Notes under the pieces: model-generated
Seen by the model: the letters and a program-made list of their open reading frames with translations, nothing else
Told to the model about the DNA's origin: nothing
The model's database searches: none
Shown here: in pieces, positions 801 through 60,918 of the stretch
How positions within the stretch are numbered: position 1 is the first letter of the stretch
Layout: every line of letters begins with the position of its first letter
Position numbers and translations under genes: made by a program
IMG/VR virus record: IMGVR_UViG_3300042114_000045
Span: 32,001-96,000 of that record
Strand: one strand, 5' to 3'
Length of the DNA stretch: 64,000 nucleotides
Origin: a virus

Positions 801-1469
801 TTACTCCTCTTTACCACTAAATTTGAATTTATTAAATATACCTGCTGTTATCATTGGACACTTAGCTCCAATACATTCATTAGCTATATATGCATTAATG
901 TACTCAGTAAGGTCTCTACCACTACCAACTACTCCAATTAACTCACCCTCAAAAAACACAGGAGCTTTAAATACTTCAAGGTGCATCATTTCACCTTTAA
1001 CTTTTCCTTCTTCTAAAAATCTACCATCATCTTTTGTAAATGAGCCATCTTTAGTTTTATTAATAACTACTACGTCGCTATTATCACAAACTTCACCGAA
1101 TGTATGATTATCAGCACCAAATCTTTCTTTAGCAGCCAACGCCATTGTAACATCATTTTTACCAATAGGATCTCTATCAAATAGCAACCCATCTCTTATA
1201 GCTTTATTTGCATATAGATAATTACCTTCTAAGTCTTTCATCCATAACATATCAGGGAGAACTTCCATCATTGCTTCCATTATAGCTTCTTGTCTCTGAA
1301 CTTTGGATTCCCAAAAAGCTCTCTCCTGCTTCAACTCTTCCTTTATTGCTTTAGCAATACCGTGCAACTCTTCCATACTATTTATTAGCCTATCTAACGA
1401 GGGAGTTTCCGTACTAGCTACGCATTTACCCTTTAACCAATTATATGCATTATCTACTATTCCACTCAT
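801..1469 (-). CDS. Stand-alone PAS-domain protein
   Basis: LPDMLWMKDLEGNYLYANKA...IGKND...HLEVFKAPVFFEGELIGVVGSGRDLT is a PAS_4/PAC signature; N-terminal coiled coil; no output domain. Confidence 0.85.
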   Translation of the reverse strand: MSGIVDNAYNWLKGKCVASTETPSLDRLINSMEELHGIAKAIKEELKQERAFWESKVQRQEAIMEAMMEVLPDMLWMKDLEGNYLYANKAIRDGLLFDRDPIGKNDVTMALAAKERFGADNHTFGEVCDNSDVVVINKTKDGSFTKDDGRFLEEGKVKGEMMHLEVFKAPVFFEGELIGVVGSGRDLTEYINAYIANECIGAKCPMITAGIFNKFKFSGKEE

Positions 1470-4702: not shown

Positions 4703-5857
4703 TTACACTAAAGCAGCGTTAAATACAGCTACATAATCAGTATTTGTAGCACCTATATCAGAAGAAGCCTGTGCACCAGTAATATCAGCAACAGCTAATG
4801 TAACAGCGCCAGTTCTACCTGCAACCGTAGTTACAGGAGCATTTGCCCAGCTTAAAGACCCAGCAGTTGCACCCGCCATTAAGAACTTACCATTATTAGT
4901 AGTACTTGTAGCTGGTACGTGTAAACTACCATCAGTAGATGGGTGTGTATAAACTGTATCTGTCCAAGGAATATTCACTACACCTTGCCCAGAAGCATTA
5001 GTTTGCAACCCATAAGTTCTACTAGCCGTAGTGGTAACTGCACTAGCAGCAACAGTCTGTACAGTATCACTATTAATCTTGATACCACCTAATATAGTAG
5101 TAGTACCAGCTGGTAGTGTATAAGCCGTAGCACCAGAAGCAATACCATCTAACTTAGTTTTATCTGTAGCACTCATAAATCCTGCAACACTAGTAGTAGC
5201 AGCACCATGCGCAGCACCAGTATCACCAACGTGTGTACTAGGAGCAGCATCAGTAATACCATAACCACTTAGTGTAGTTGGATTTGTACCTGCTGTTACT
5301 CTACCTTTTGCATCAACAGTAACGCTTTTATAAGTAGAAGCAGTTACACCACTATTAGCCAACGTAGCTGCACCAGTAACATTCCCAGAACCATCAAATG
5401 ATCCAGATGTATACGTTACATCACCAGTAATCGCAATAGTTCTACCAGTAGCTAACTTCGTAGCTGTTAATACATTCTTATCTGCATCGGCAGTGTTATC
5501 AACATTTCCTAAACCTACGTCACCTTTGACGAGAGTAACTACCCCAGTTTTACCTGCAACGCTATCAACAGCACCAGAAGCAATTTGTGTATAAACACTT
5601 CCACTCCATCTATAAGTTCTATTAGTATCTAACGTAACATATAATATACCTGCAACACCTGTACCAGGCAACGCTGCAAGATTAGCATATTCTACTACAT
5701 CATCTACGAAACTTGGTAATTGTGCACTCGGTATTTTACCACCACCATCTAGAGTTGCAACTCCATTTGCAGCACCTTTTTCACTACTCGAAATCTTACC
5801 TTTAACTGCTGTACCTATCGAGGTAAAAACACTTTGTAATCCACTATCTAAACTCAT
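4703..5857 (-). CDS. Tail fibre protein
   Basis: KGAANGVATLD..GKIP..QLPS, SVAGKTGVVTL, ATKLATGRTIA, VTVDAKGRVTAG, GFMSATDKTKLDGI motifs typical of phage fibres. Confidence 0.85.
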   Translation of the reverse strand: MSLDSGLQSVFTSIGTAVKGKISSSEKGAANGVATLDGGGKIPSAQLPSFVDDVVEYANLAALPGTGVAGILYVTLDTNRTYRWSGSVYTQIASGAVDSVAGKTGVVTLVKGDVGLGNVDNTADADKNVLTATKLATGRTIAITGDVTYTSGSFDGSGNVTGAATLANSGVTASTYKSVTVDAKGRVTAGTNPTTLSGYGITDAAPSTHVGDTGAAHGAATTSVAGFMSATDKTKLDGIASGATAYTLPAGTTTILGGIKINSDTVQTVAASAVTTTASRTYGLQTNASGQGVVNIPWTDTVYTHPSTDGSLHVPATSTTNNGKFLMAGATAGSLSWANAPVTTVAGRTGAVTLAVADITGAQASSDIGATNTDYVAVFNAALV

Positions 5858-17462: not shown

Positions 17463-18608
17463 TCAACCTCCTCTTCTAACATTATAGGTAATTCTTGTAT
17501 CTTCACCATACTCTCTATCATACACAATACACTTCATAGTTCCTGCATTTCTACCAAATCCAGCATCAGCTGCCCAAGCATTTAAAGGTGCAATATTTCT
17601 ATGACTCTCAGCTTTACAAAGTCTACCATCATATATAGCATCTTTATGGATATGACCAAAATGGAAATACCTCTCTTTAGTAGTACTCCAGTTAGCTTCA
17701 TTATGCATCGCCATAACTTCTCCAGAATGGCCCATCTTTAATCCATCACCATGTGCAAAACCTAACAACGTTCTACCAAATTGGTAGTATTTTTGTTTAG
17801 CAGGAGATTCATCAACTATAACACCTTCATCATTTCTAAACCATGCAGACACAAATGCAGTAATAGCATACCCAGTAGTTATATCGTGGTTACCACTTAT
17901 ATTAATAAACCTAACAGTATTATGTTTTGTTAAAGCTTTCTCAATAAAGTATCTCATACATTCCATAGCAACTTTCATTACCTTTGGATATCTTCCATCA
18001 GTATCTAGTATATGCCCACTCTTAGGTGTCATATTTTTAAGGTCATCTATCTCAGTTAAATCTCCAAGATCAACAACAATACATTCTTCAGTAGATGGAG
18101 CTCTCTCAACTAACTCATCAATAGCAAGTTTTAATTGAGTCTCAGCTATAGACAAATCCCAATCACTGTCCCTAGTTTCAGGACCCCACATTAACGCACC
18201 AATATGTACATCATTTGATATATAAACAGGAAGTAAATCAGTTCGTGTATTTTGTACTCTTGGTAACTGTACATGTGAAGATCTTAAAGAACCAAGTAGT
18301 TCTAATATGGCAGTCTTAGCTGCATCAGCTTTACTATTACCAGTCTCTTTAACCCATTGTAGTTTAACATTACCTTCTCCATCAACCAATGTAGATGTTC
18401 CAGTAGTTATAGCCATAGTTGGTTTAACACCAGAATACAAACTTAGTATATCTTCTCTTGTCTTATACAAATACCAGTTGTTAATTCCATACTTCAGTCT
18501 AACATTTCTAGTAGCTCTTTTTCTTTCTCTGGGATCGGCAATCATCAGTGCCTCTGCTACTTCTTTTAATTCTTCTTTACTCCAGTTATCGTATAACGCC
18601 ATGAGCAT
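17463..18608 (-). CDS. Calcineurin-like metallophosphoesterase
   Basis: DVHIG, DLGD, GNHD, AHGD, GHIH motifs. Confidence 0.85.
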   Translation of the reverse strand: MLMALYDNWSKEELKEVAEALMIADPRERKRATRNVRLKYGINNWYLYKTREDILSLYSGVKPTMAITTGTSTLVDGEGNVKLQWVKETGNSKADAAKTAILELLGSLRSSHVQLPRVQNTRTDLLPVYISNDVHIGALMWGPETRDSDWDLSIAETQLKLAIDELVERAPSTEECIVVDLGDLTEIDDLKNMTPKSGHILDTDGRYPKVMKVAMECMRYFIEKALTKHNTVRFINISGNHDITTGYAITAFVSAWFRNDEGVIVDESPAKQKYYQFGRTLLGFAHGDGLKMGHSGEVMAMHNEANWSTTKERYFHFGHIHKDAIYDGRLCKAESHRNIAPLNAWAADAGFGRNAGTMKCIVYDREYGEDTRITYNVRRGG

Positions 18609-18801
18609 CCTTTATTAGTAATTTTACTAATTATACTTAAAGTAGTCTTAACTTTATCTTAAAGGTATATCTGCTATAATACACTATAAGTACGGAATAG
18701 TCATACACGACATAATTAACTGTGCTTATCTTTTATTAACTAACAATGATACTAAATCTGATTTTTTCATATTATCTATATTAAATACTGAAGAGTTTAA
18801 A

Positions 18802-18875
18802 TGGTTCGGATATAGAGAATCGAACTCTAACCTCAGCTTCCCAAAAGCCGTGTGCTACCATAACACTTTATCCAA
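18802..18875 (-). tRNA. tRNA-Pro(UGG)
   Basis: Cloverleaf on minus strand, anticodon loop TTTGGGA, TTCGA T-loop, encoded CCA. Confidence 0.88.
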
Positions 18876-18878
18876 ATA

Positions 18879-18954
18879 TGGTGCTACCAACAGGGATCGA
18901 ACCTGTGACACTAGGATTTTCAATCCTATGCTCTACCATCTGAGCTACAATAGC
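18879..18954 (-). tRNA. tRNA-Phe(GAA)
   Basis: Cloverleaf, loop TTGAAAA, CCA. Confidence 0.92.
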
Positions 18955-18955
18955 A

Positions 18956-19032
18956 TGGTGGAATATATCGGATTCGAACCGATCACCTCTAGCGTGCAAA
19001 GCTAGCGCTCTACCAAAATGAGCTAATACCCC
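18956..19032 (-). tRNA. tRNA-Ala(UGC)
   Basis: Cloverleaf, G3:U70, loop TTTGCAC, CCA. Confidence 0.92.
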
Positions 19033-19042
19033 TTATAAAAAT

Positions 19043-19119
19043 TGGTTGTTCCATAAGGACTTGAACCTTAAACCTCTCGATTATCAACCGAACGCTCTGA
19101 CCAATTGAGCTATGGAACA
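19043..19119 (-). tRNA. tRNA-Ile(GAU)
   Basis: Cloverleaf, loop TTGATAA, CCA. Confidence 0.9.
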
Positions 19120-19121
19120 TT

Positions 19122-19197
19122 TGGCACTCCTAATCGGATTCGAACCGATATGAGCTCCTGGAAAGGGAGCCATCCTAAACCATTAGATGATAGGAGC
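19122..19197 (-). tRNA. tRNA-Glu(UUC)
   Basis: Cloverleaf, GCTCC-CTTTCCA-GGAGC, CCA. Confidence 0.9.
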
Positions 19198-19199
19198 AT

Positions 19200-19273
19200 T
19201 GGCTCTCTAGGTAGGTATCGAACCTACGACTTCCCTTTAACAGAGGGATGCTTGACCTTCAAGCTACTAGAGA
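19200..19273 (-). tRNA. tRNA-Asn(GUU)
   Basis: Cloverleaf, loop CTGTTAA, CCA. Confidence 0.9.
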
Positions 19274-19274
19274 A

Positions 19275-19351
19275 TGGGGTAATCGACGAGACTCGAACTC
19301 GCAACATTCAGGATCACAACCTGACGCCTCTACCATTGGGCTACGACTAAC
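19275..19351 (-). tRNA. tRNA-His(GUG)
   Basis: Cloverleaf, loop TTGTGAT, G-1/C73, CCA. Confidence 0.9.
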
Positions 19352-19358
19352 ATAAATT

Positions 19359-19442
19359 TGGTGCGGAAGGAGAGACTCGAACTCTCACGCCTTTCAGCAC
19401 TGGTTTCTAAGACCAGATTGGCTACCATTACAACACTCCCGC
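19359..19442 (-). tRNA. tRNA-Leu(UAG)
   Basis: Cloverleaf with variable arm, loop CTTAGAA, CCA. Confidence 0.9.
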
Positions 19443-19443
19443 A

Positions 19444-19517
19444 TGGATCGAGGACCAGGGTTCGAACCTGGATTCGCAACTTCAAAGGCTGCTGTCCTAC
19501 CATTAGACGATCCTCGA
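19444..19517 (-). tRNA. tRNA-Gln(UUG)
   Basis: Cloverleaf, loop CTTTGAA, CCA. Confidence 0.9.
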
Positions 19518-19520
19518 ATA

Positions 19521-19596
19521 TGGAGCTCAATATCAGAATCGAACTGATTATCTCCTGGTTACAAATCAGGCGCTTCGCCAGCAAAGCTTATCAAGC
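19521..19596 (-). tRNA. tRNA-Thr(UGU)
   Basis: Cloverleaf, loop TTTGTAA, CCA. Confidence 0.9.
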
Positions 19597-19609
19597 ATAT
19601 TATATAAAT

Positions 19610-19641
19610 AAAAAAGGGCAGAACCTTTCGATCCTACCCTT
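19610..19641 (-). terminator. Intrinsic terminator immediately upstream of the tRNA array (attenuator)
   Basis: Minus strand AGGGTAGGATC-GAAA-GGTTCTGCCCT-TTTTT: 11-bp stem, GAAA loop, U tract. Confidence 0.8.
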
Positions 19642-19664
19642 CTAAAGATGAACTGTGTATAAAA

Positions 19665-19766
19665 CTATATACCAGTAACCTCAAAAGGGCACAGACACGT
19701 CTCGGCATTAAACGCCGGTAGCTGATGATTAATAATATTTACATTATGTAGTTGTGCTATTGCCAT
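19665..19766 (-). CDS. Putative 33-aa leader peptide of the tRNA array (not in ORF track)
   Basis: AAGGA RBS, ATG at 19766, MAIAQLHNVNIINHQLPAFNAETCLCPFEVTGI, TAG at 19667-19665. Confidence 0.7.
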   Translation of the reverse strand: MAIAQLHNVNIINHQLPAFNAETCLCPFEVTGI

Positions 19767-19797
19767 GTCTGTTCCTTATTTATTTTATATTTGAGTA

Positions 19798-19832
19798 ATT
19801 GTACTATTAATATGCTTTAATATACCTTAAAT
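19798..19832 (-). promoter_or_regulatory. Putative sigma70 promoter for leader plus tRNA array
   Basis: Minus strand TTTAAG...TTAAAG...TTAATAGTACAAT; periodic TTAA(G) tracts plus -10-like TACAAT, matching similar elements before 1469, 6522, 7440, 18608 and 21789. Confidence 0.5.
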
Positions 19833-19857
19833 CTGTGTAGTATACAATAGACTGTAA

Positions 19858-20928
19858 TTATACAAGTTCATTAGCAATTTTTCTTACTACATTCATGGCT
19901 AATACTTCACCACTATCAACTGCAGCTTCATACAATCTATATAAAGGTACAACTTTCATGCCATACATACCAACAGCGTTAGCCCACGCATAAGTACCAT
20001 CAACACAGTTATTAACATCAAAAGAATCTTGAATATGACATAGTACTCCGCTATCTTTATCAACAGCTTTTAAAATAATATCATCAACACTATTACATTT
20101 CCTTCTTCGTCTAAATTCTACAACAGCTTCTTTAATAATATTTTCCTCAAGCGTAGAGTAGTATGTACCATACACTATATGTTTAACCATAAACACCCTC
20201 TCTGTACTCTTTAAAGTCTTTCCTTTAACATACATTGGAATAATAGTGTAAACACTGTACACGTAGATATTACCTTTCTTATATAAGAACTTCTCACCAA
20301 ATCTTAATATACCAGACGTATTAGTAAGCTTACCTCTATTAATATAAGCTATTACACATTCCCTAGCATCTCTATAACTCTTCGGTGAATAGCCTATCCT
20401 AATTGAGTAAGCAACCATTGCAAGTTTACCAACACTACAAGTTACACCAACTATACCTATAGCTTCTAGTATATTTTCAAAAGACAACACTATATTATGC
20501 CGTGCTATACCTACGTCCCTAGTACTCCATATTCTATTTTCAATACGTCTAATACTATTATTACTAAAAGCTTTATAATCAATCAGTTGTTTACCAGTTG
20601 ATAAGCCATTATACCCTCTACCGTTATTACTTCTTTTACCAATAGAAGCTAGAGCTGATAGCCTAGTACCAGTATACCCATGTACTACTAGCAACCTAAA
20701 CAACGTAGTTCTTAACTCGGTAAACAATTTCTTACCTGCGTCTGTGTCATTAATACTTTCACCAACATATATACCACTAGTCATTCTATGAACATTAAAT
20801 ATATTTGGAGCTAATCCTAAAGCTGCGGCAATCTCTTCTAGTGTGTCAGCCTTTGTGTATAAATTAACGTATCTTAATACTTCATCACATAGTATACGTC
20901 TGTTGAGTACCTTTTTAACGATCCACAT
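19858..20928 (-). CDS. Hypothetical protein
   Basis: 356-aa ORF, no motif recognised. Confidence 0.6.
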   Translation of the reverse strand: MWIVKKVLNRRILCDEVLRYVNLYTKADTLEEIAAALGLAPNIFNVHRMTSGIYVGESINDTDAGKKLFTELRTTLFRLLVVHGYTGTRLSALASIGKRSNNGRGYNGLSTGKQLIDYKAFSNNSIRRIENRIWSTRDVGIARHNIVLSFENILEAIGIVGVTCSVGKLAMVAYSIRIGYSPKSYRDARECVIAYINRGKLTNTSGILRFGEKFLYKKGNIYVYSVYTIIPMYVKGKTLKSTERVFMVKHIVYGTYYSTLEENIIKEAVVEFRRRRKCNSVDDIILKAVDKDSGVLCHIQDSFDVNNCVDGTYAWANAVGMYGMKVVPLYRLYEAAVDSGEVLAMNVVRKIANELV

Positions 20929-31240: not shown

Positions 31241-31664
31241 TGATGGTCTGGCGAAATTGGGAAACGCTTGGGTATAGATACTCATTCTGTAGGTTCGACT
31301 CCTACTAGGAATTAATTACTCCGAATATGGTAAGTTTTCAGGTTCAACTCCTGAGTCCATCATCATTTTTATATAGCTATAGTTTAACTGGGTAAAACCG
31401 TCGACATTATGGAGGCAAGATATAGGTTCAAATCCTATTAGTTATGTCCAGAAGATAGAAAGATGCATTAGGTTGTGTAGAGTCTGCGGAAGCCAGAGTG
31501 TCTGGTAGTCGAATGCATAGGCTGACTCATTGGATTAATTCCAGGCAAGTTCGATTCTTGTCATCTTCACCAATATACGCAAGGATATAGTCACTGACAC
31601 ATATTGAAAACATAGGGCGTACAGCTACGTTCCAGAGTAAGTTTGAATCTTACACCTTGCTCCA
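31241..31664 (+). ncRNA. Tandem aberrant tRNA-like RNAs (about 31241-31365, 31373-31450, 31451-31572, 31579-31664)
   Basis: Each has a paired acceptor stem and a T arm (TTCRA or TTTGA), three end in CCA, and none has a clean anticodon arm. Confidence 0.6.
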
Positions 31665-48011: not shown

Positions 48012-48341
48012 GGGGATGTCCTGGCATCGACTAGAGCATCAAGCTACCTATGTGCTATCCAGTTGTAGAACTGTAAAACTACACCAAAATTTTAAATGCA
48101 AACAATGTAAACTACAGATCAGCTCAATTCGTAAGAGTTGCTGCTTAATCTATAGCCTGGTCCCACTATATTACCAAACGGGACTGTTTCGTCGAAAGAC
48201 ACCTCTCATATATACAAATATGCAGTATTAAAATGTATATCAGTCCGCAGCTACTGAACAAGCGACCAATTTAGTATGATAGCTAAAAGCATGGATGCAA
48301 GGTGTTTTAACACACGGGTTCGACTCCCGTCATCTCCACCA
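48012..48341 (+). ncRNA. ssrA: tmRNA
   Basis: GGGGATG 5' end pairs with CATCTCC-ACCA; T arm GGGTTCGACTCCC; pk1; tag ORF 48098-48148 ANNVNYRSAQFVRVAA*. Confidence 0.9.
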
Positions 48342-48343
48342 AT

Positions 48344-48432
48344 GGATAGATAGCCTAATGGTAAGGCACCAGCCTTGAAAGCTGGCGATAGAAGAAATTC
48401 TATTGAGAGTTCGAGTCTCTCTCTATCCTCCA
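48344..48432 (+). tRNA. tRNA-Ser(UGA)
   Basis: CCAGC-CTTGAAA-GCTGG, long variable arm, CCA. Confidence 0.88.
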
Positions 48433-48433
48433 T

Positions 48434-48508
48434 TCAAAGATAGTTCAACCGGGCAGAACAACAACCAGGGGGTTGTAGTTATAGGTTCAAATCCTGTTCT
48501 TTGATCCA
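48434..48508 (+). ncRNA. tRNA-like RNA with abnormal anticodon loop (CAGGGG)
   Basis: TCAAAGA/TCTTTGA acceptor, D and T arms, CCA; 6-nt loop lacking U33. Confidence 0.65.
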
Positions 48509-48513
48509 AATAA

Positions 48514-48590
48514 GGACCTGTAGCTTAAACGTAAAAGCCCTCGCCTCATAAGCGAAGAGATTTCATGACGTAACATGAATGGGTCCACCA
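48514..48590 (+). tRNA. tRNA with CAU anticodon and non-canonical T-loop (ACGTAA)
   Basis: GGACCTG/TGGGTCC acceptor, loop CTCATAA, TTCATG-ACGTAA-CATGAA, ACCA. Confidence 0.7.
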
Positions 48591-48591
48591 C

Positions 48592-48679
48592 GGAGAGTTG
48601 AGAGAGTGGTTTATTCTACCTCTTTGCTAAAGAGGCGTAGTTTCGGCTACCATAGGTTCAAATCCTATACTCTCCTCCA
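48592..48679 (+). tRNA. tRNA-Ser(GCU)
   Basis: CCTCT-TTGCTAA-AGAGG, variable arm, CCA. Confidence 0.88.
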
Positions 48680-54078: not shown

Positions 54079-55086
54079 ATGTACGAGGCATACAAACAAG
54101 TAAATACAGAAGTAAGAAAGCACGGTATGCTACTACTTTTAACAAAATCAGGTTCAATGCTTTATGGTACTAATACACCTAGTAGTGATACAGATTATAA
54201 GGGAGTATATCTGCCATATAAAGAATCGTTATTACTACAAAAAACTACCGAATTTATTAAATTAGACACAAATAAAACAGGGAAAGCAAATACATCGGAA
54301 GATATTGATTGTCACATAGACTCAATCCATAAATGGTTACACTTATTAGAAAAAGGTGAAACTAACGCGTTAGATACATTATTCTCGTTATGGACAGATA
54401 AAGTAGAATACGTAGATCCTAGATTTGAAAAAGTATTAAAAGATAATTACCTTAGTTTTATAACTTCAAATCCACACGCATTCGTAGGTTACTGTATATC
54501 ACAAACTAAAAAATATAATATTAGAGGTACAAGATACAACGAATTGTTAGAGTTTGTAACGTATTTAAGGGAATTACCTTTAGAACCAGAAACTAAAATG
54601 TTTACATTTATAGATCATATAAAACAACACTTAACAACAAATTCTGATAAGTACATTAAATTTGTGCAAGCACCTGGACCAAGAGGTGCTAAAATCGAAG
54701 AATGGACTTACTTAGAAGTACTAGGAAGAAAATTCGCAGATAATATCACACTAGAATACTTAGACCAAAAATGTACTGAGATGCTCAATAGCTACGGTTC
54801 TCGTGTTGTAGGCAACACTGATGCAATAGACTGGAAAGCTATGTCACATGCAGTAAGAGTAATCTTAGAGGTAGAAGAGCTACTATCAACTAGTTTTATT
54901 AAATTCCCATTAAAAGATGCAGAATTTATTAAACAAGTAAAAGCCGGTAACGTAGAAATTGATAAAGTGCAACAGCTTCTTACTCAAAAAATTGAGTTAG
55001 TAGATGAACTTTTACAAACAACAACATTAAACAAAGAAGTAGATAAAAGAGAAGTAAGTAACTTAATATTATCATACTACAACTAA
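54079..55086 (+). CDS. Nucleotidyltransferase (T4 NrdC.11/RlaP-like)
   Basis: GSMLYGTNTPSSDTDYKGVYLP, DWKAMSHAVR, FPL. Confidence 0.85.
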   Translation: MYEAYKQVNTEVRKHGMLLLLTKSGSMLYGTNTPSSDTDYKGVYLPYKESLLLQKTTEFIKLDTNKTGKANTSEDIDCHIDSIHKWLHLLEKGETNALDTLFSLWTDKVEYVDPRFEKVLKDNYLSFITSNPHAFVGYCISQTKKYNIRGTRYNELLEFVTYLRELPLEPETKMFTFIDHIKQHLTTNSDKYIKFVQAPGPRGAKIEEWTYLEVLGRKFADNITLEYLDQKCTEMLNSYGSRVVGNTDAIDWKAMSHAVRVILEVEELLSTSFIKFPLKDAEFIKQVKAGNVEIDKVQQLLTQKIELVDELLQTTTLNKEVDKREVSNLILSYYN

Positions 55087-55095
55087 GGAAAACAC

Positions 55096-56316
55096 ATGGA
55101 AAAAAAGGTAACAATATATTCAGACACAATTGAAACAGAAGCATTAGAGCAATTCTACGCAGCAATGGCGTTACCTTGTGTGCTTCAAGGTGCATTAATG
55201 CCTGATTCACATACAGGATATACACTCCCAATTGGAGCAGTAGTTAAAACACAAAGTAAAATATTTCCATCTTTCGTAGGTTACGATATAGGATGCGGTA
55301 TGTCTGCAATCAGAACAAATGTAAAGAACTTAACAGAACAACAACTACAAGATCTTAAAACTTTAATTCTTAAAAAGATACCACTTGGTAGAGATACACA
55401 TAAAGGTAGAATGAAATTAAAGAATAAGTACACTGGTATGTCAGACATAGCAACAGATGTATTTCAACATCTTGCAGATAAACAAGTTGGAACTCTTGGT
55501 GGAGGAAACCACTTCATTGAAGTAGGTACTGATAAAGAAGACTACGTAAACATTGTAATCCACTCTGGTTCAAGAGGCGTAGGTAAGAAAATAGCTGAAC
55601 ACTATATGAAACTCGCTGCAATGGAAGATGTAGATAAATCTCGTTATGGAGCAGAATTCAGATCAAAAAATGATTGGGAATCTAAAAATCCAGATAACTT
55701 TAAAAAAGCTATGGACGAATTTGTATACAGAAGAACAAGAGCTAGAGTATCAGATGTAGAAGGTGCCTACGGCTTCGATATCTCATCAGAATCTGGTAAA
55801 GCATATATACACGATATGGATCAAGCACTGGCATTTGCGTTAGAAAATAGAGAAACTATGATTTATACAATTGTAGACTGTATCAAAGAGGTATTAGGAA
55901 CTAAAACCGTAGGTACTTCTCGTTTCATTAATAGAAACCATAATCACGCTGAAATAAATGAAGCTGGAGAAGTAATACACCGTAAAGGAGCAACTCACGC
56001 AGAAGAAGGTATGCTTGGAGTAATTCCAGGAAATATGCGAGATGGTTCTTTCATCGTTTCAGGAAAAGGTAATCCACATTCAATGAATAGTAGTTCACAC
56101 GGAGCAGGACGAGTCCTATCTCGTAGACAAGCCAAAGACTTACTATCGTTGGAAGATCTGCGGATTGCTACACAAGGAATAGTTACGAACCATTCAGATG
56201 AAAATATAGACGAAGCACCAGATGCTTACAAAAATATCTTTGAAGTAATGGAACTTCAATCAGATTTAGTAGAAGTACTAGATCATATAAAACCAATCCT
56301 CAATATTAAAGGTTAA
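55096..56316 (+). CDS. rtcB: RtcB RNA ligase
   Basis: MPDSH, GYDIGCGM, GGGNHF, HSGSRG, HNH, HRKGA, SHGAGR, DEAPDAYK. Confidence 0.95.
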   Translation: MEKKVTIYSDTIETEALEQFYAAMALPCVLQGALMPDSHTGYTLPIGAVVKTQSKIFPSFVGYDIGCGMSAIRTNVKNLTEQQLQDLKTLILKKIPLGRDTHKGRMKLKNKYTGMSDIATDVFQHLADKQVGTLGGGNHFIEVGTDKEDYVNIVIHSGSRGVGKKIAEHYMKLAAMEDVDKSRYGAEFRSKNDWESKNPDNFKKAMDEFVYRRTRARVSDVEGAYGFDISSESGKAYIHDMDQALAFALENRETMIYTIVDCIKEVLGTKTVGTSRFINRNHNHAEINEAGEVIHRKGATHAEEGMLGVIPGNMRDGSFIVSGKGNPHSMNSSSHGAGRVLSRRQAKDLLSLEDLRIATQGIVTNHSDENIDEAPDAYKNIFEVMELQSDLVEVLDHIKPILNIKG

Positions 56317-56319
56317 TAA

Positions 56320-57459
56320 ATGACTACTTTACCAACTCTGTATAAAAGAACTAAAACTGGTGCAATTCAAGTATGTAGTATACTTGTATCAGCAGACACA
56401 TACACAGTAGTGTTTGGTAAACTAAATGGTAAAATGCAAAGTAAAACTACTACCTGCAAACCTAAAAACGTAGGTAAATCAAATGAAACTACGGGACCAC
56501 AACAAGCGATACTAGAAGCTGAGTCAAAATATAGATCGAAAATAGATGAAGGTTACAGTTTAAACCAAGAACCAGATTCTGAGGTTGAACTTCCTATGAA
56601 AGTTAAAATTTATCAAGAATCAAAACATTTAGTAGACTGGCAAGGTGGAGTAACAGTATCTCCTAAGCTTAATGGTGTAAATGGAGAATTCAAATTCAAA
56701 CTAGTCAATGGAAAACTTAAGTTATTTTCAAGAGGCGGATTAGAGTATCCAATGCTTGAACATCTAAAACCAACTATACTTAAAGTTCTTCAACTATCAG
56801 GGGAAACTAGTCTTAACGTTGAATTATACAAGCACGGATGGCACCTTCAAGATATTACTGCAGCAGTCAAAGCGTTTAAGCCAGATACACATGAGTTTCC
56901 TACATCAAAAATTGAAGCACATATCTTTGAAGTACCATCAAGAACAAACAGTTATGTACACACAATGACTAAAATAGCTGCTATAACTTCTGCTATCAAT
57001 AAAGCTAATATTAAACAAAAACTACCTATTTTAGTAGATACAGTTCCGTTTTACGAAGTTACAAATGAAGCTGAAATTGACACTTGGTTTGATAGGGTAG
57101 TTGATAATTTCGAGGGATTAATTGTTAGAAATAACAGATGTGAATATAGGTATAATGAACGAAGTTCAGATGTATTCAAGTATAAAAAAGCTTTAGACGC
57201 TGAATATGAAATTGTAGGCTACAACATCGATAAAAATGATCATGTAGTATACGTATGTACAACAAAAAATGGTAAAAGATTTTCAGTAAAACGAAAAGGT
57301 ACAAATGAACAAAGACTAGCTGATGCACTTGTAGTTAAAACAAACATTGGTAAATTTTTAACCATAGAGTATGAAACTCTATCGAAAGATCTGATACCTC
57401 AGAAACCAGTTGGATTAAATTTCAGAGACTGTGATATTAATGGTGATCCATTAATATAA
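56320..57459 (+). CDS. ATP-dependent DNA ligase
   Basis: SPKLNG motif I variant, SRGG, ELY.HG, FEGLIVR, RS...KYK, OB domain GK.LTIEY...P..PV. Confidence 0.85.
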   Translation: MTTLPTLYKRTKTGAIQVCSILVSADTYTVVFGKLNGKMQSKTTTCKPKNVGKSNETTGPQQAILEAESKYRSKIDEGYSLNQEPDSEVELPMKVKIYQESKHLVDWQGGVTVSPKLNGVNGEFKFKLVNGKLKLFSRGGLEYPMLEHLKPTILKVLQLSGETSLNVELYKHGWHLQDITAAVKAFKPDTHEFPTSKIEAHIFEVPSRTNSYVHTMTKIAAITSAINKANIKQKLPILVDTVPFYEVTNEAEIDTWFDRVVDNFEGLIVRNNRCEYRYNERSSDVFKYKKALDAEYEIVGYNIDKNDHVVYVCTTKNGKRFSVKRKGTNEQRLADALVVKTNIGKFLTIEYETLSKDLIPQKPVGLNFRDCDINGDPLI

Positions 57460-57482
57460 AATATTCATTAAAGGAAAAAAAT

Positions 57483-58430
57483 ATGGGACAAGGATATTGT
57501 GATTTTAACCCAAAGCTATTTGCACCATTTATATCAAAAAAGGTAAAAATAAACCCTGAGTTAGCTGATGACTGGGAAATAATACCTACAACATATGTAA
57601 GTACTACTGGATTCTCATTAAAATCAAAAAAGTTAAACCAAGAAGTAGCTGACATAGAACTGTATAGATTTTTGAAGTTTTCAAAAGAACAAAAATTAGT
57701 TATAGAAGGACTGAAGTTAAAAGGTACTTATATTATAGGTAACGATAGAAGTGTGTATACACAGAGTATGTACAATGAATGGTTTTCATTATATCATAAA
57801 AGAACTGAGACTATTATAAACCCAAAAGATTATATAGTAGGTAACAAATATACTACACCATGTGGTATGTCACTGATTTATTTAGGATACAGATACGTAG
57901 CAACAATAAAAAAAGCACATTTAATTAACTACGCAGAGCACTCAACAATAATAAAAAAACATTTTTATGTTGATGCCTCATTCAATAAGTACCATGACAA
58001 TAATTCAGCGCCCATCTACGAATTAAAAATGAAGTTATCAAAAGATTTAGGTGTAGCAATAACAAAAGAAGATGCAGATACACTTCTATATAATTTATAT
58101 GTTTCTAACCTAAATTTTATATGTTTTGAAAAAGTTAAACCGACTAACCCTGTATTTGGTATTATACCAATGAAAGATTATAAATTTTCTGCAGGATACA
58201 GTGATAAAACTACGAAATACTTTAACGTTCTTATAGCAAAGCTAAATAATCAGTACTTTTCTGGTAGATATACGTTATACATGTATACAAAAGATACAGT
58301 TGAAAATGCAGTACTTGGGTCAGGTACGTTATACCTAGTTGACCCAATAACATTAATAGGTAGAGATAATTGTACTTGTCCATCACACAAAAAATTTGAT
58401 AGTTACCACAGAATAGGATTGATAAAATGA
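57483..58430 (+). CDS. Hypothetical protein
   Basis: 315-aa ORF with RBS. Confidence 0.6.
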   Translation: MGQGYCDFNPKLFAPFISKKVKINPELADDWEIIPTTYVSTTGFSLKSKKLNQEVADIELYRFLKFSKEQKLVIEGLKLKGTYIIGNDRSVYTQSMYNEWFSLYHKRTETIINPKDYIVGNKYTTPCGMSLIYLGYRYVATIKKAHLINYAEHSTIIKKHFYVDASFNKYHDNNSAPIYELKMKLSKDLGVAITKEDADTLLYNLYVSNLNFICFEKVKPTNPVFGIIPMKDYKFSAGYSDKTTKYFNVLIAKLNNQYFSGRYTLYMYTKDTVENAVLGSGTLYLVDPITLIGRDNCTCPSHKKFDSYHRIGLIK

Positions 58431-59674
58431 AACAACAAATATACATAGTAGGAGGAGCTGTAAGAGACCAATTGCTAGAAACTATACCAGCAGACATCGA
58501 CTATGTAGCTGTTGGTTATACCGCTGAACACTTTATAGAAAAAGGATTTAAGCAAGTAGGTAAAGACTTCCCAGTATTCCTATCCCCAACAGGGAACGAA
58601 TACGCGCTAGCTCGCAGAGAACGTTCAACTGGAAATGGTTATAACGACTTCACAGTTGATACATCAGATGTAACAATTGAAGAAGATTTAAAACGAAGAG
58701 ATTTAACAATAAATTCAATGGCACTTGATGCAGATAATAAGCTCATAGATCCGTATCACGGGCAAGAAGATATAGCTCGTAAGATTCTAAGACATACGTC
58801 AGAAGCATTCGCTGAAGATCCTTTGAGAGTCCTTAGACTAGCAAGATTCAGAGCAAGATTAGGGGAGGAATGGTCAATAGCACCAGAAACAAAACTCCTC
58901 ATAGATTCAATGCGACCAAAACTTACAAGTCTACAACCAGATAGAGTATTCGCAGAAGTAGATAAAGTAATGAAACTTACTGACTCTTATATATTCTTTG
59001 AGACTTTAGATGAGCTGCAAGTATTAGACATAGTATTTCCAAATATCTACGACTTAAAATCTTATAGAGAAGGATCTAAATGGCATAAAGAACCAAATGT
59101 CTTTGAACATACTATGAGAATGCTTCAATTAGCTTCATTATACACACCTGTAATTAAATATATGATTTTATACCACGATATATGTAAACCAAAGTGTAGA
59201 CGACTATACGGCAATGGTGCAGGTCATGATTCAGCAGAAATGGCAGAACCATTATTAGATATTAAATTACCTACGAAGATTAAAGAGTATGTATTACACC
59301 ATATCGAATATCATCAACGAATATTTAAGGTATACGAAGACATGTCAGCTAGAAAAATAGTTAAACTTATTAAAGCTTTTAAAAAAGATAAGTTACTACT
59401 TACTTACATGATAATTGTTGGTAAATTTGACAAAGATGGTTCAATATGTCTATATCAAAGACCTCATACAGATTTTAGTTCATTTAAACATGCATTTGAT
59501 GAAGTAAATAGTTTCTCTCCGTTATTTTGGATACAGGATTACATAGCAAAGAATGGTGAAAGACCTTCTGGTGAAGTAATAAAACAATATGTTCATAATG
59601 AACAAATAAAAATCGTTAAAAGTATAATTATCAAGGAAAGAAATGAGTCAAATAGTAGAGTCACTAAAAAATAG
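58427..59674 (+). CDS. cca: tRNA nucleotidyltransferase (CCA-adding) with HD domain
   Basis: VGGAVRD..DIDY, EYALARRE, EDLKRRDLTINSMA, EDPLRVLRLARF, H.E..VFEH, YHDICK. Confidence 0.92.
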   Translation: MKQQIYIVGGAVRDQLLETIPADIDYVAVGYTAEHFIEKGFKQVGKDFPVFLSPTGNEYALARRERSTGNGYNDFTVDTSDVTIEEDLKRRDLTINSMALDADNKLIDPYHGQEDIARKILRHTSEAFAEDPLRVLRLARFRARLGEEWSIAPETKLLIDSMRPKLTSLQPDRVFAEVDKVMKLTDSYIFFETLDELQVLDIVFPNIYDLKSYREGSKWHKEPNVFEHTMRMLQLASLYTPVIKYMILYHDICKPKCRRLYGNGAGHDSAEMAEPLLDIKLPTKIKEYVLHHIEYHQRIFKVYEDMSARKIVKLIKAFKKDKLLLTYMIIVGKFDKDGSICLYQRPHTDFSSFKHAFDEVNSFSPLFWIQDYIAKNGERPSGEVIKQYVHNEQIKIVKSIIIKERNESNSRVTKK

Positions 59675-59832
59675 GGTAGCAATTCTTAAAGGCTATTCTC
59701 CATTAGAAGAAGAAAAATATAAAAAAAGTAAAGAAGGTCTAGAAGATATGTTCGAGTACGCTAAGAGTAAGGGTAAAGAAATACCAAAAACACTTGTACT
59801 TGAAGTTGAAGACTTACTAAAAAAGGAATAAA

Positions 59833-60918
59833 ATGAGAAAATTAGCATCAATACAAACAATAACTGCTCTATACCCAATAGAAGGTAAAGACAGAATAGC
59901 ATTAGCACAAATACTAGGTTGGCAAGTAATCGTCAAAAAAGATGAATTTGCTGTAGGAGATAAGTGTGTATACTTTGAAATAGATAGCTTCTTACCAGAT
60001 GTACCAGAATTTCAATTCTTAGGTAAAACTAGTACGTATCTAAGTTACACTGGTTATAGACTTAAAACTATGAAAATGGCAAAAGTATTATCTCAAGGAT
60101 TAGCATTACCATTAAGTATGTTTCCTACATTAATTGCAAATCTTAGTGATGACACAGATGTAACCGAAAGGCTAAATATTGTCAAATATGACAAAGAAAC
60201 AGTAGAAAATGCTCAAAGTGGGTCACTTAACCAAGGATCTTCAGAAGGAAAATTTCCTTCGTTTATCCCAAAAACTGATCAAACTAGAATTCAATCACTT
60301 CCTTCATTTTTTATATCTCATAAAGATGAAGCATTTGAAGAAACATTAAAATTAGATGGTAGTAGCTGTACAATTTACAAAATAATGAGTAAAAAAACAG
60401 GCTTACTAGCTAAGGTAATGAACTTCTTAGGATTCGATACTACAACTACGCACTTTGGTGTATGTAGTAGAAACCTAGAAATTAAACGACCAAAAGCTGG
60501 TGAAAAACAATCAGATTTCTGGACAGCGGCAATTAAATATGATATTGAAAATTCATTGCCAGTTGGTTATGCTATTCAAGGTGAATTAATAGCACCTAAT
60601 ATCCAAAAGAATTGGGAGAAGGTAAAAGAAGTAGAATACTACATATTTGATGTATATGACATCAATAAAGGTAGTTACTTATTACCAGATGCAAGAAGAG
60701 CATTCGTAGCTTCGTATCTATCTAGTGCAAAACATGTACCTGTGATAAATGAATCTGTAGAAATATTAAAACTTACACAAGACCAAATACTTGAACGAGT
60801 TAAAAGACAATCAATGAATCCTGGAACTATCAGTGAAGGAAGCGTGTATAAATCACTTAAACATTCAACAGTATCGTTTAAAGCAATCAGTAATGAGTAT
60901 CTGTTAAAGGAAAAATAA
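59833..60918 (+). CDS. RNA ligase, DRB0094 (Rnl5/Rnl2-like) family
   Basis: MRKLASIQ.I..L.PI.G.DRI, VYFEIDS, SQGL, FP.FIPKTD..RIQ, KLDGSS, QGEL, EG.VYK, SFKAISN.YLLK. Confidence 0.9.
   Translation: MRKLASIQTITALYPIEGKDRIALAQILGWQVIVKKDEFAVGDKCVYFEIDSFLPDVPEFQFLGKTSTYLSYTGYRLKTMKMAKVLSQGLALPLSMFPTLIANLSDDTDVTERLNIVKYDKETVENAQSGSLNQGSSEGKFPSFIPKTDQTRIQSLPSFFISHKDEAFEETLKLDGSSCTIYKIMSKKTGLLAKVMNFLGFDTTTTHFGVCSRNLEIKRPKAGEKQSDFWTAAIKYDIENSLPVGYAIQGELIAPNIQKNWEKVKEVEYYIFDVYDINKGSYLLPDARRAFVASYLSSAKHVPVINESVEILKLTQDQILERVKRQSMNPGTISEGSVYKSLKHSTVSFKAISNEYLLKEK

Follow-up and report, generated by a model that had tools for sequence, protein, structure and literature searches.

A probable leader-peptide attenuator preceding a phage tRNA operon, with codon content matched to the tRNAs downstream

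A 64,000-nucleotide stretch of phage DNA, referred to here as the window (bases 32001-96000 of the 122,779-bp IMG/VR virus record IMGVR_UViG_3300042114_000045), carries on its minus strand an array of ten tRNA genes (18802-19596) that is preceded by a short open reading frame (ORF) and an intrinsic terminator. In transcription order, ARAGORN assigns the array as Thr-UGU, Gln-UUG, Leu-UAG, His-GUG, Asn-GUU, Glu-UUC, Ile-GAU, Ala-UGC, Phe-GAA and Pro-UGG, with 1-10 nt between neighboring genes. The ORF (19665-19766, minus strand) consists of 33 codons and a TAG stop, and a Shine-Dalgarno sequence, AAGGA (19773-19777, minus strand), lies 6 nt upstream of its ATG. Its translation is MAIAQLHNVNIINHQLPAFNAETCLCPFEVTGI; an identical 33-residue product is recorded as a called gene in JGI/IMG, and a search of IMG/VR with the core of the leader returned no matches. 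Between the ORF and the array, a terminator scan located a hairpin of 14 pairs with a GAAA loop (19612-19643, minus strand), followed by a U run that extends to about 19606. By itself the hairpin has a folding energy of -18.4 kcal/mol, and it is the sole terminator-like site in the interval 18500-20500. An original prediction for this locus, made from the nucleotide sequence, had proposed the ribosome-binding site, the 33-codon ORF, the terminator, and the ten tRNAs with these identities, and each was recovered as described.

Codons 2-23 of the ORF (19698-19763, minus strand) form a regulatory block that matches the array in both residues and codons. All ten amino acids of the array are present in the block and 21 of its 22 residues belong to that set, while 19 of the 22 codons are strictly readable by the anticodons of the array (the misses are ATA, GTA and GCC). 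Both Leu codons are CTA, which fits the UAG anticodon. These counts reproduce those of the original prediction and were compared with a proxy proteome of 91 long ORFs comprising 32,798 residues. The ten amino acids make up 53.4% of this proteome, which gives the block a binomial P of 2.1e-5; strictly readable codons make up 35.6%, which gives P = 1.3e-6. Among 30,887 proteome windows of 22 residues, two reach 21 of 22 residues in the set, neither with all ten amino acids, and none reaches 19 readable codons. The six frames of the genome contain 932 small ORFs of 22-60 codons, three of which reach 21 of 22; the other two high scorers are low-complexity strings of Leu, Gln and His that do not contain all ten amino acids and do not lie beside tRNAs. 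The composition of the leader is confirmed as real and far beyond chance.

Folding of the leader transcript reveals an antiterminator, in which a 5' arm with the sequence GCCCUUUUGAGG (codons 26-29; 19679-19690, minus strand) pairs with a 3' arm at 19636-19647 (minus strand) that overlaps the 5' arm of the terminator. Because 19647-19636 is common to both structures, terminator and antiterminator exclude each other. Minimum-energy folds contain a further helix, in which 19764-19772 pairs with 19691-19699 (codons 23-26; both minus strand) and the start codon is sequestered. The original prediction had treated all three helices as mutually exclusive; this holds for the terminator and the antiterminator, and the start-codon helix is compatible in folding with either state. 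Such a helix may restrict the leader to a single round of translation.

The effect of ribosome position was assessed by folding nascent transcripts that were cut before the 3' arm of the terminator and in which 27 nt around the ribosomal A site were masked. These folds replaced equilibrium folding as the predictor for the window, since at equilibrium the terminator wins almost everywhere. The antiterminator is complete with the A site at any codon up to 22; two pairs are lost at codon 23, the helix erodes at codons 24-25, and nothing of it is left from codon 26 to the stop, its 5' arm being masked once the A site reaches codon 26 or beyond.

Relatives of the locus were sought in viral, metagenome and genome collections through two markers, the large terminase (TerL) and a 381-residue, recombination/repair nuclease-like neighbor protein. 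TerL alone returned 9 loci; a TerL profile returned 80 viral loci, 79 of which were scanned, and 17 loci in genome contigs. A two-sequence profile of the 381-residue protein returned three metagenome and seven viral loci, and a 45-sequence profile returned 39 loci. The 381-residue protein was dropped as a lineage marker on account of its presence in 2049 phage records, and the tRNA sequences were rejected as search patterns as too diverged between relatives. Only four loci carry at least four tRNAs near the marker genes, namely L003 (a contig also represented as L012, L015, L027 and L106), L009, L107 and L092. A candidate leader precedes the array in the first three, and L092 is treated below with the loci that lack one.

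In L003, whose TerL is 74% identical to that of the window, ARAGORN lists tRNAs for Asn, Phe, Asp, Thr, Leu-UAG, Tyr, Trp, Glu, Gln, His and Ser-GCU, and an extra Ser-UGA that is missed by default appears at a relaxed threshold, giving 12 in total. The leader of L003 reads MRTTTTSTSTQHLHDWFQDSYSYNETNNYFIL. All 28 of its residues 3-30 belong to the set of its own array, all 11 amino acids of that set are present, and its Ser codons are drawn from both codon boxes, matching the two Ser tRNAs. The AAGGA motif recurs at the identical 6-nt spacing before the ATG of the L003 leader and before the second ATG of the L107 leader. Separately, the UAG-anticodon tRNA of L003 (3334-3409) measures 76 nt and has no long variable arm, in contrast to the Leu-UAG tRNAs of the window and L107; its identity as a tRNA-Leu appears doubtful.

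In L107, where the 381-residue protein is 64% identical and ARAGORN finds 18 tRNAs, every one of the 20 amino acids occurs in the leader, an outcome with P = 0.0026 for random peptides of 41 residues. Asp and Cys had no tRNA in the first list; Infernal then found three further tRNAs in gaps of the array, namely one with the Asp anticodon GUC, one that ARAGORN calls Cys-GCA at a 90% threshold, and a third with a long arm and an uncertain anticodon. With the added tRNAs, all 20 amino acids are covered. Inside the same array, between tRNA-Gly and tRNA-Arg, lies a 63-codon ORF (5075-5266), which, counted by hand, shows no excess of the amino acids served by the tRNAs behind it. The third relative, L009, is more distant (TerL 49% identical) and carries four tRNAs, for His, Gln, Ser-UGA and Ile. 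Its leader begins at the predicted transcription start of a promoter with an 11/12 match and contains S-Q-Q-H-I at codons 10-14.

When each leader was scored against its own array, binomial P values of 2.4e-4 (window), 2.5e-6 (L003) and 5.2e-3 (L009) were obtained, and all nine cross-pairings of these leaders with the arrays of other loci gave P of at least 0.12; the test does not suit L107, whose set is too large. Residues private to one array separate the window and L003 in the same manner, with counts for Ile/Ala/Pro versus Asp/Tyr/Trp/Ser of 10/0 in the window leader and 1/10 in that of L003 (Fisher P = 3.4e-5). Synonymous choice also follows the anticodon: across the three leaders whose arrays include a UAG anticodon, seven of seven Leu codons are CUN (with P(CUN|Leu) = 0.48, P = 0.006). 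No peptide sequence is conserved across the four leaders, and only their composition tracks the array. The comparison supports the view that leader content follows array content across relatives, fully in L003 and L107 and partly in L009, so that the covariation expected by the original prediction is borne out in two relatives and in part of a third. The succession Q-L-H-N in the window leader, which had been read as an echo of array order, does not recur in L003, L009 or L107 and is treated as chance.

All four leaders fold much better than shuffled sequences (z = -6.3 for the window, with further values of -7.2 and -5.4). In the nascent folds, the antiterminator remains intact up to codon 29 in L003, where the matched block spans codons 3-30, and up to codon 15 in L009, where S-Q-Q-H-I ends at codon 14. 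In the window, L003 and L009 alike, the limit to which a ribosome leaves the antiterminator intact therefore falls within one codon of the end of the matched block. Equilibrium folds of the full transcript agree in the two relatives. For L003 the probability of the terminator is 0.00 as long as the ribosome occupies any sense codon up to 30, and it rises to 0.72 once the ribosome stands at the stop; for L009 it stays at 0.00 over codons 2-15 and reaches 0.92-0.99 over codons 16-25. The position of the matched codons, which lie in all three loci where a stalled ribosome would keep the antiterminator, supports an attenuator that operates through stalling. Folding with a ribosome mask, a check suggested together with the original prediction, therefore favors the proposal in the nascent folds and in the L003 and L009 equilibria, while the window equilibrium favors the terminator.

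Variation between strains was evaluated in 20 public sequencing runs, which were kept as contigs and whose 'RNA?' labels are guesses. Contigs from three runs (X7, X9 and X16) contain a diverged allele of 19603-19848; each contig differs at 32-34 letters and has 12-14 gap letters, and the statements that follow concern the differences that are listed, about 20 of the 32-34 per contig. The 66 nt of the matched block (codons 2-23) contain two: Ala2 is replaced by Thr, likewise a member of the set, and Leu16 changes synonymously from CTA to CTG. The 39 nt of the ORF tail and loop (19644-19682) contain 12 substitutions and six indels, the 32 nt of the terminator stem (19612-19643) none, and the 82 nt upstream of the ORF six substitutions and one 6-nt deletion. 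With the listed changes worked through by hand, the ORF still has 33 codons and keeps the position of its stop, and four of the last five sense codons are changed nonsynonymously, with two of the changes introducing Arg and Lys, for which the array has no tRNA. Within the start-codon helix, the paired positions 19771 and 19692 change together from C-G to U-A, a compensatory change, and U19644 changes to C, which converts a G.U pair of the antiterminator into G-C. Array content also varies between close strains, since a contig of run X16 (region 19032-19275) lacks tRNA-Ile exactly (19033-19121 skipped) and has tRNA-Asn replaced by 141 other letters. A contig of run X7 that covers 19563-19762 was considered as evidence of expression and set aside, as it may be DNA.

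Based on these data, we consider it likely that the ORF is the leader of a ribosome-mediated transcription attenuator, placed before a phage tRNA operon and sensing codons decoded by the very tRNAs under its control. This reading is based on the parts, their statistics, their covariation with the arrays and the competition between folds: the locus combines a Shine-Dalgarno sequence and a short ORF, enriched sensing codons, a terminator before the array, an antiterminator that excludes it in silico, and a leader content that tracks the array in relatives. The logic of ribosome stalling that the original prediction had put forward gains support from the covariation, from folding with the ribosome mask and from the compensatory change in the diverged allele. 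In a simple model, RNA polymerase would transcribe the leader with a ribosome following on the 33-codon ORF. When all ten tRNA species are ample, the ribosome would reach codons 26-33 in time to cover the antiterminator's 5' arm, so that the terminator hairpin would form and transcription would end before tRNA-Thr. If any one of the ten were scarce or uncharged, the ribosome would stall inside codons 2-23; the antiterminator (19690-19679 with 19647-19636) would then form first and trap the 5' arm of the terminator, resulting in readthrough into the array. Fresh phage tRNAs would relieve the stall and close the gate. The outcome would be an OR gate with ten inputs and negative feedback on tRNA supply. 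In this model we infer that the leader is translated, that trapping is kinetic and that the response runs in this direction, and likewise what would deplete the tRNAs; stalling through attack by anticodon nucleases is speculation.

Several observations weigh against this interpretation. Each sensing codon is present only 1-4 times, so that sensitivity would be lower than with the codon runs of classical leaders. At equilibrium, the full transcript of the window favors the terminator nearly wherever the ribosome sits, with a probability of 0.96 that drops to 0.37-0.65 only at codons 22-23, and the terminator state (-55.8 kcal/mol) is more stable than the antiterminator state (-52.7 kcal/mol). 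The model consequently needs the antiterminator to act as a kinetic trap, which is usual for attenuators. The terminator of L003 is weak, with nine AU-rich pairs, an 18-nt loop and -7.7 kcal/mol, and was not called by a simple scan. L107 is ambiguous, since it offers two candidates for the terminator, both with weak U tracts and opposite in their logic. The leader of L009 fits only in part, as seven of the 14 codons in its stall zone (Lys, Thr, Ala, Leu twice, Asn and Glu) have no tRNA in the array of four genes. The conservation pattern in the diverged allele is incomplete, given the share of differences listed.

Finally, the design is not general. Seven N4-type tRNA loci were examined for upstream ORFs, L092 with six tRNAs and L054, L062, L068, L071, L099 and L074 with one or two each, and no matched leader was found, the upstream region of L074 being lost at a contig end; the examination did not extend to L143, L144, L158 and L159, which have one to three tRNAs. 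In L092, which contains two tRNA-like stretches in addition to its six ARAGORN tRNAs, no convincing leader is present, the best ORF having 17 of 38 residues in the set. Isolated tRNAs in the record of L003 (L025 and L026) have no leaders, and none was found upstream of the tRNA-Met and the tmRNA/Ser cluster of the window, where a matched leader was looked for. Matched leaders are generally lacking in G003 and G004, two distant large phages that together have about 60 tRNAs (covered by L022-L024 with 41 listed tRNA groups, two of which are counted twice since L023 and L024 overlap). The exceptions are two ORFs, one of 15 codons that is rich in Ser and precedes two Ser tRNAs, and one rich in Asp and Cys that precedes a tRNA-Asp. 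The leader device appears to belong to the main arrays of some phages and not to phage tRNAs generally.

Two observations on short ORFs before tRNAs are recorded in their own right. The Ser-rich ORF, in a distant GC-rich large phage (L022, 4526-4595), has nine Ser among the 14 residues after its start Met; it ends 22 nt before Ser-UGA and Ser-GCU, which leaves no space for a terminator. In Caulobacter phage phiCbK (L146; JX100813.1, 47000-53000), three tRNA blocks have an annotated terminator immediately in front of them. The Phe-Val-Ile-Ile-Val-Gln-Gln block is preceded by a short ORF in which Gln, Phe, Val and Ile abound (Q-F-V, Q-I-Q-V-V, I), situated after a TTGACA-type promoter and before the annotated terminator, and the ORFs before the Glu-Asp and Pro-Pro blocks are weakly matched.

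Alternatively, the leader might be a general sensor of amino-acid starvation or translation stress that serves a late operon, its match to the array arising from a shared bias toward heavily used codons. A stall reports on charged tRNA, so amino-acid starvation would also open the gate, and a recombination-nuclease-like gene and TerL do lie downstream on the same strand. A shared bias does not readily account for the contrast in composition, however, since amino acids of the array and readable codons make up 95% and 86% of the block but 53% and 35.6% of the proteome. Nor does it explain why leaders differ between relatives along with array content, or why synonymous choice favors the anticodons, with CTA preferred in the block over TTA, which accounts for 45% of Leu codons in the genome. 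We regard this explanation as improbable.

The polarity of the switch could also be the reverse, such that the array is transcribed only after the leader has been translated to its end, as a gate on translation competence in cells that are still translating. Some folds point this way. If the 3:4 hairpin of L107 is its terminator, the terminator probability is 0.01 with a ribosome at the stop and 1.00 without a ribosome, and in L009, with the ribosome advanced to codons 26-28, the antiterminator is restored behind it. In L003, by contrast, the terminator is allowed only with a ribosome at the stop (0.72 as opposed to 0.00 at codons 2-30), and the matched codons of the window and of L009 coincide exactly with the zone in which a stalled ribosome spares the antiterminator. 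A gate that requires the tRNAs it supplies would, moreover, be a dead end when those are missing. Reverse polarity is accordingly judged quite improbable.

It is very improbable that the ORF stands by chance beside the ordinary terminator of an upstream gene, with the tRNAs transcribed from a start of their own or by leaky readthrough. Small ORFs are common, as the 932 counted above and the three that reach 21 of 22 illustrate, and a promoter for the leader is not established. The promoter-like element of the original prediction matches at 9 of 12 positions, which is no better than chance: it is the nearest of seven such sites found in the 2 kb around the leader, where 7.8 are expected. A conserved promoter among three upstream regions was dropped: the regions align poorly, and a shared TTTAAGG-type motif has four occurrences in the window against 3.4 expected. 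On the other side of the terminator, a promoter scan, which may miss phage-specific promoters, found no minus-strand promoter-like site before the array, and a TATAAT at 19604-19599 would place its predicted start within tRNA-Thr; the scan thus gave no usable promoter between terminator and array, where independent transcription of the tRNAs would need one. Chance would also have to produce the same arrangement in three relatives, with contents that track their arrays, as well as the compensatory change and the conserved terminator in the diverged allele (among the listed differences), and the two other high-scoring small ORFs are low-complexity strings, without all ten amino acids and away from tRNAs. 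That the ORF encodes a small trans-acting protein with an incidental composition, as its call by the JGI/IMG gene caller might suggest, is scarcely credible, given that the four leaders share composition with their arrays and no peptide sequence with one another, and that tail residues of the diverged allele change freely while the block stays (among the listed differences).

The wider genome is that of a phage whose TerL is about 55% identical to N4-type podophage counterparts. A cluster of RNA-repair genes on the plus strand (54079-60918 of the window) comprises those for an RlaP-family nucleotidyltransferase, for RtcB (E = 2.8e-84), for an ATP-dependent DNA ligase, for an HD-domain enzyme of the CCA-adding type and for an RNA ligase containing a PHA02142 OB domain. 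A phage-encoded tmRNA with the tag ANNVNYRSAQFVRVAA is followed by tRNA-Ser-UGA, an odd tRNA-like gene and tRNA-Ser-GCU (48012-48679, plus strand). Together, the repair cluster and the tmRNA are consistent with a phage that is exposed to tRNA damage, whatever the trigger of leader stalling may be. The odd gene in the tmRNA cluster has a two-base 'anticodon', and a second odd tRNA-like gene occurs at 31372-31450. Among the relatives, L009 contains a group I intron (1153-1410, minus strand; 77.5 bits, E = 1.1e-18), and in L010 the terminase match extends over 2448 nt for 551 residues, which suggests that the gene carries an insertion.

The putative attenuator shares its architecture with known regulatory leaders in bacteria. 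Enterobacterial leaders include the multivalent ones of the thr (Thr and Ile codons) and ilvGMEDA (Ile, Leu and Val) operons as well as trpL, hisL, leuL and pheL. As in these systems, a short ORF that would be translated contains sensing codons, several amino acids can be involved, and the choice between terminator and antiterminator would be decided by the position of the ribosome. In contrast to them, the locus lies in a phage; the genes under control are tRNAs and not biosynthetic enzymes, so that the signal would be influenced directly by the product; between ten and twenty amino acids are represented by 1-4 codons each, as opposed to runs of one to three kinds; and leader content shifts with array content between relatives. 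In Escherichia coli, pheST, which encodes phenylalanyl-tRNA synthetase, is under an attenuator with the Phe-rich leader pheM. There too a gene of the translation apparatus is subject to leader-peptide attenuation that reads the cognate charged tRNA, although pheST has a single amino acid as input and a synthetase as output, where the phage leader would put out tRNAs. T-box riboswitches likewise sense tRNA status and choose between terminator and antiterminator; unlike the leader modeled here, they bind uncharged tRNA directly, without translation. No T-box was found in 19550-19900 in an Rfam search at E of at most 1, and the same interval matched no other Rfam family, the best E values being 0.15 and 0.92, far under the gathering scores.

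A parallel at the level of the array is found in Anabaena PCC 7120, in which a cryptic long tRNA operon (trn) is reported to be induced under translational stress (PMC8421152, PMC10272220) and controlled by the repressor TrcR (PMC10272220). As described in these reports, trn resembles the phage locus in that an extra tRNA array would be silent until translation is impaired. In a look-up of terms, leader, attenuat, terminator and small ORF have no occurrences in PMC8421152, and leader, attenuat, uORF and stalling none in PMC10272220. Phage tRNAs are described as countering tRNA-cleaving defenses by replacing host tRNAs lost in infection (PMC10264068, PMC11555353, PMC11464382); unlike the present analysis, the abstracts of these studies address tRNA function and not transcriptional control. 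A search of full-text literature, which left subscription journals largely outside, returned no paper on leader-peptide attenuation of tRNA genes.

More generally, we lean, if narrowly, toward the proposition that the tRNA arrays of large phages are governed by self-referential 'roster' attenuators. The leader would list the encoded tRNAs one codon after another and co-evolve with the array as tRNAs are gained and lost. It would act as an OR gate that turns on replacement tRNAs upon depletion of any listed host tRNA, for example by anticodon nucleases, and that switches off once supply is restored. Phage tRNA genes are usually regarded as constitutive cargo. If the attenuator exists as modeled, these genes would instead lie behind a demand-driven gate, through which phages gauge decoding capacity and top it up only when needed. 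The familiar logic of the trp operon would then act on a new target, with a bearing on why phages carry tRNAs at all, whether for codon compensation or for escape from tRNA-cleaving defenses. The leader itself names the tRNAs whose loss would be expected to open the gate. Such leaders could mark the starts of tRNA operons in the annotation of metagenomic phages and could offer synthetic biology a compact sensor of tRNA availability. If the broader proposition is true, they would constitute a readable record of the tRNAs that a phage expects to lose.

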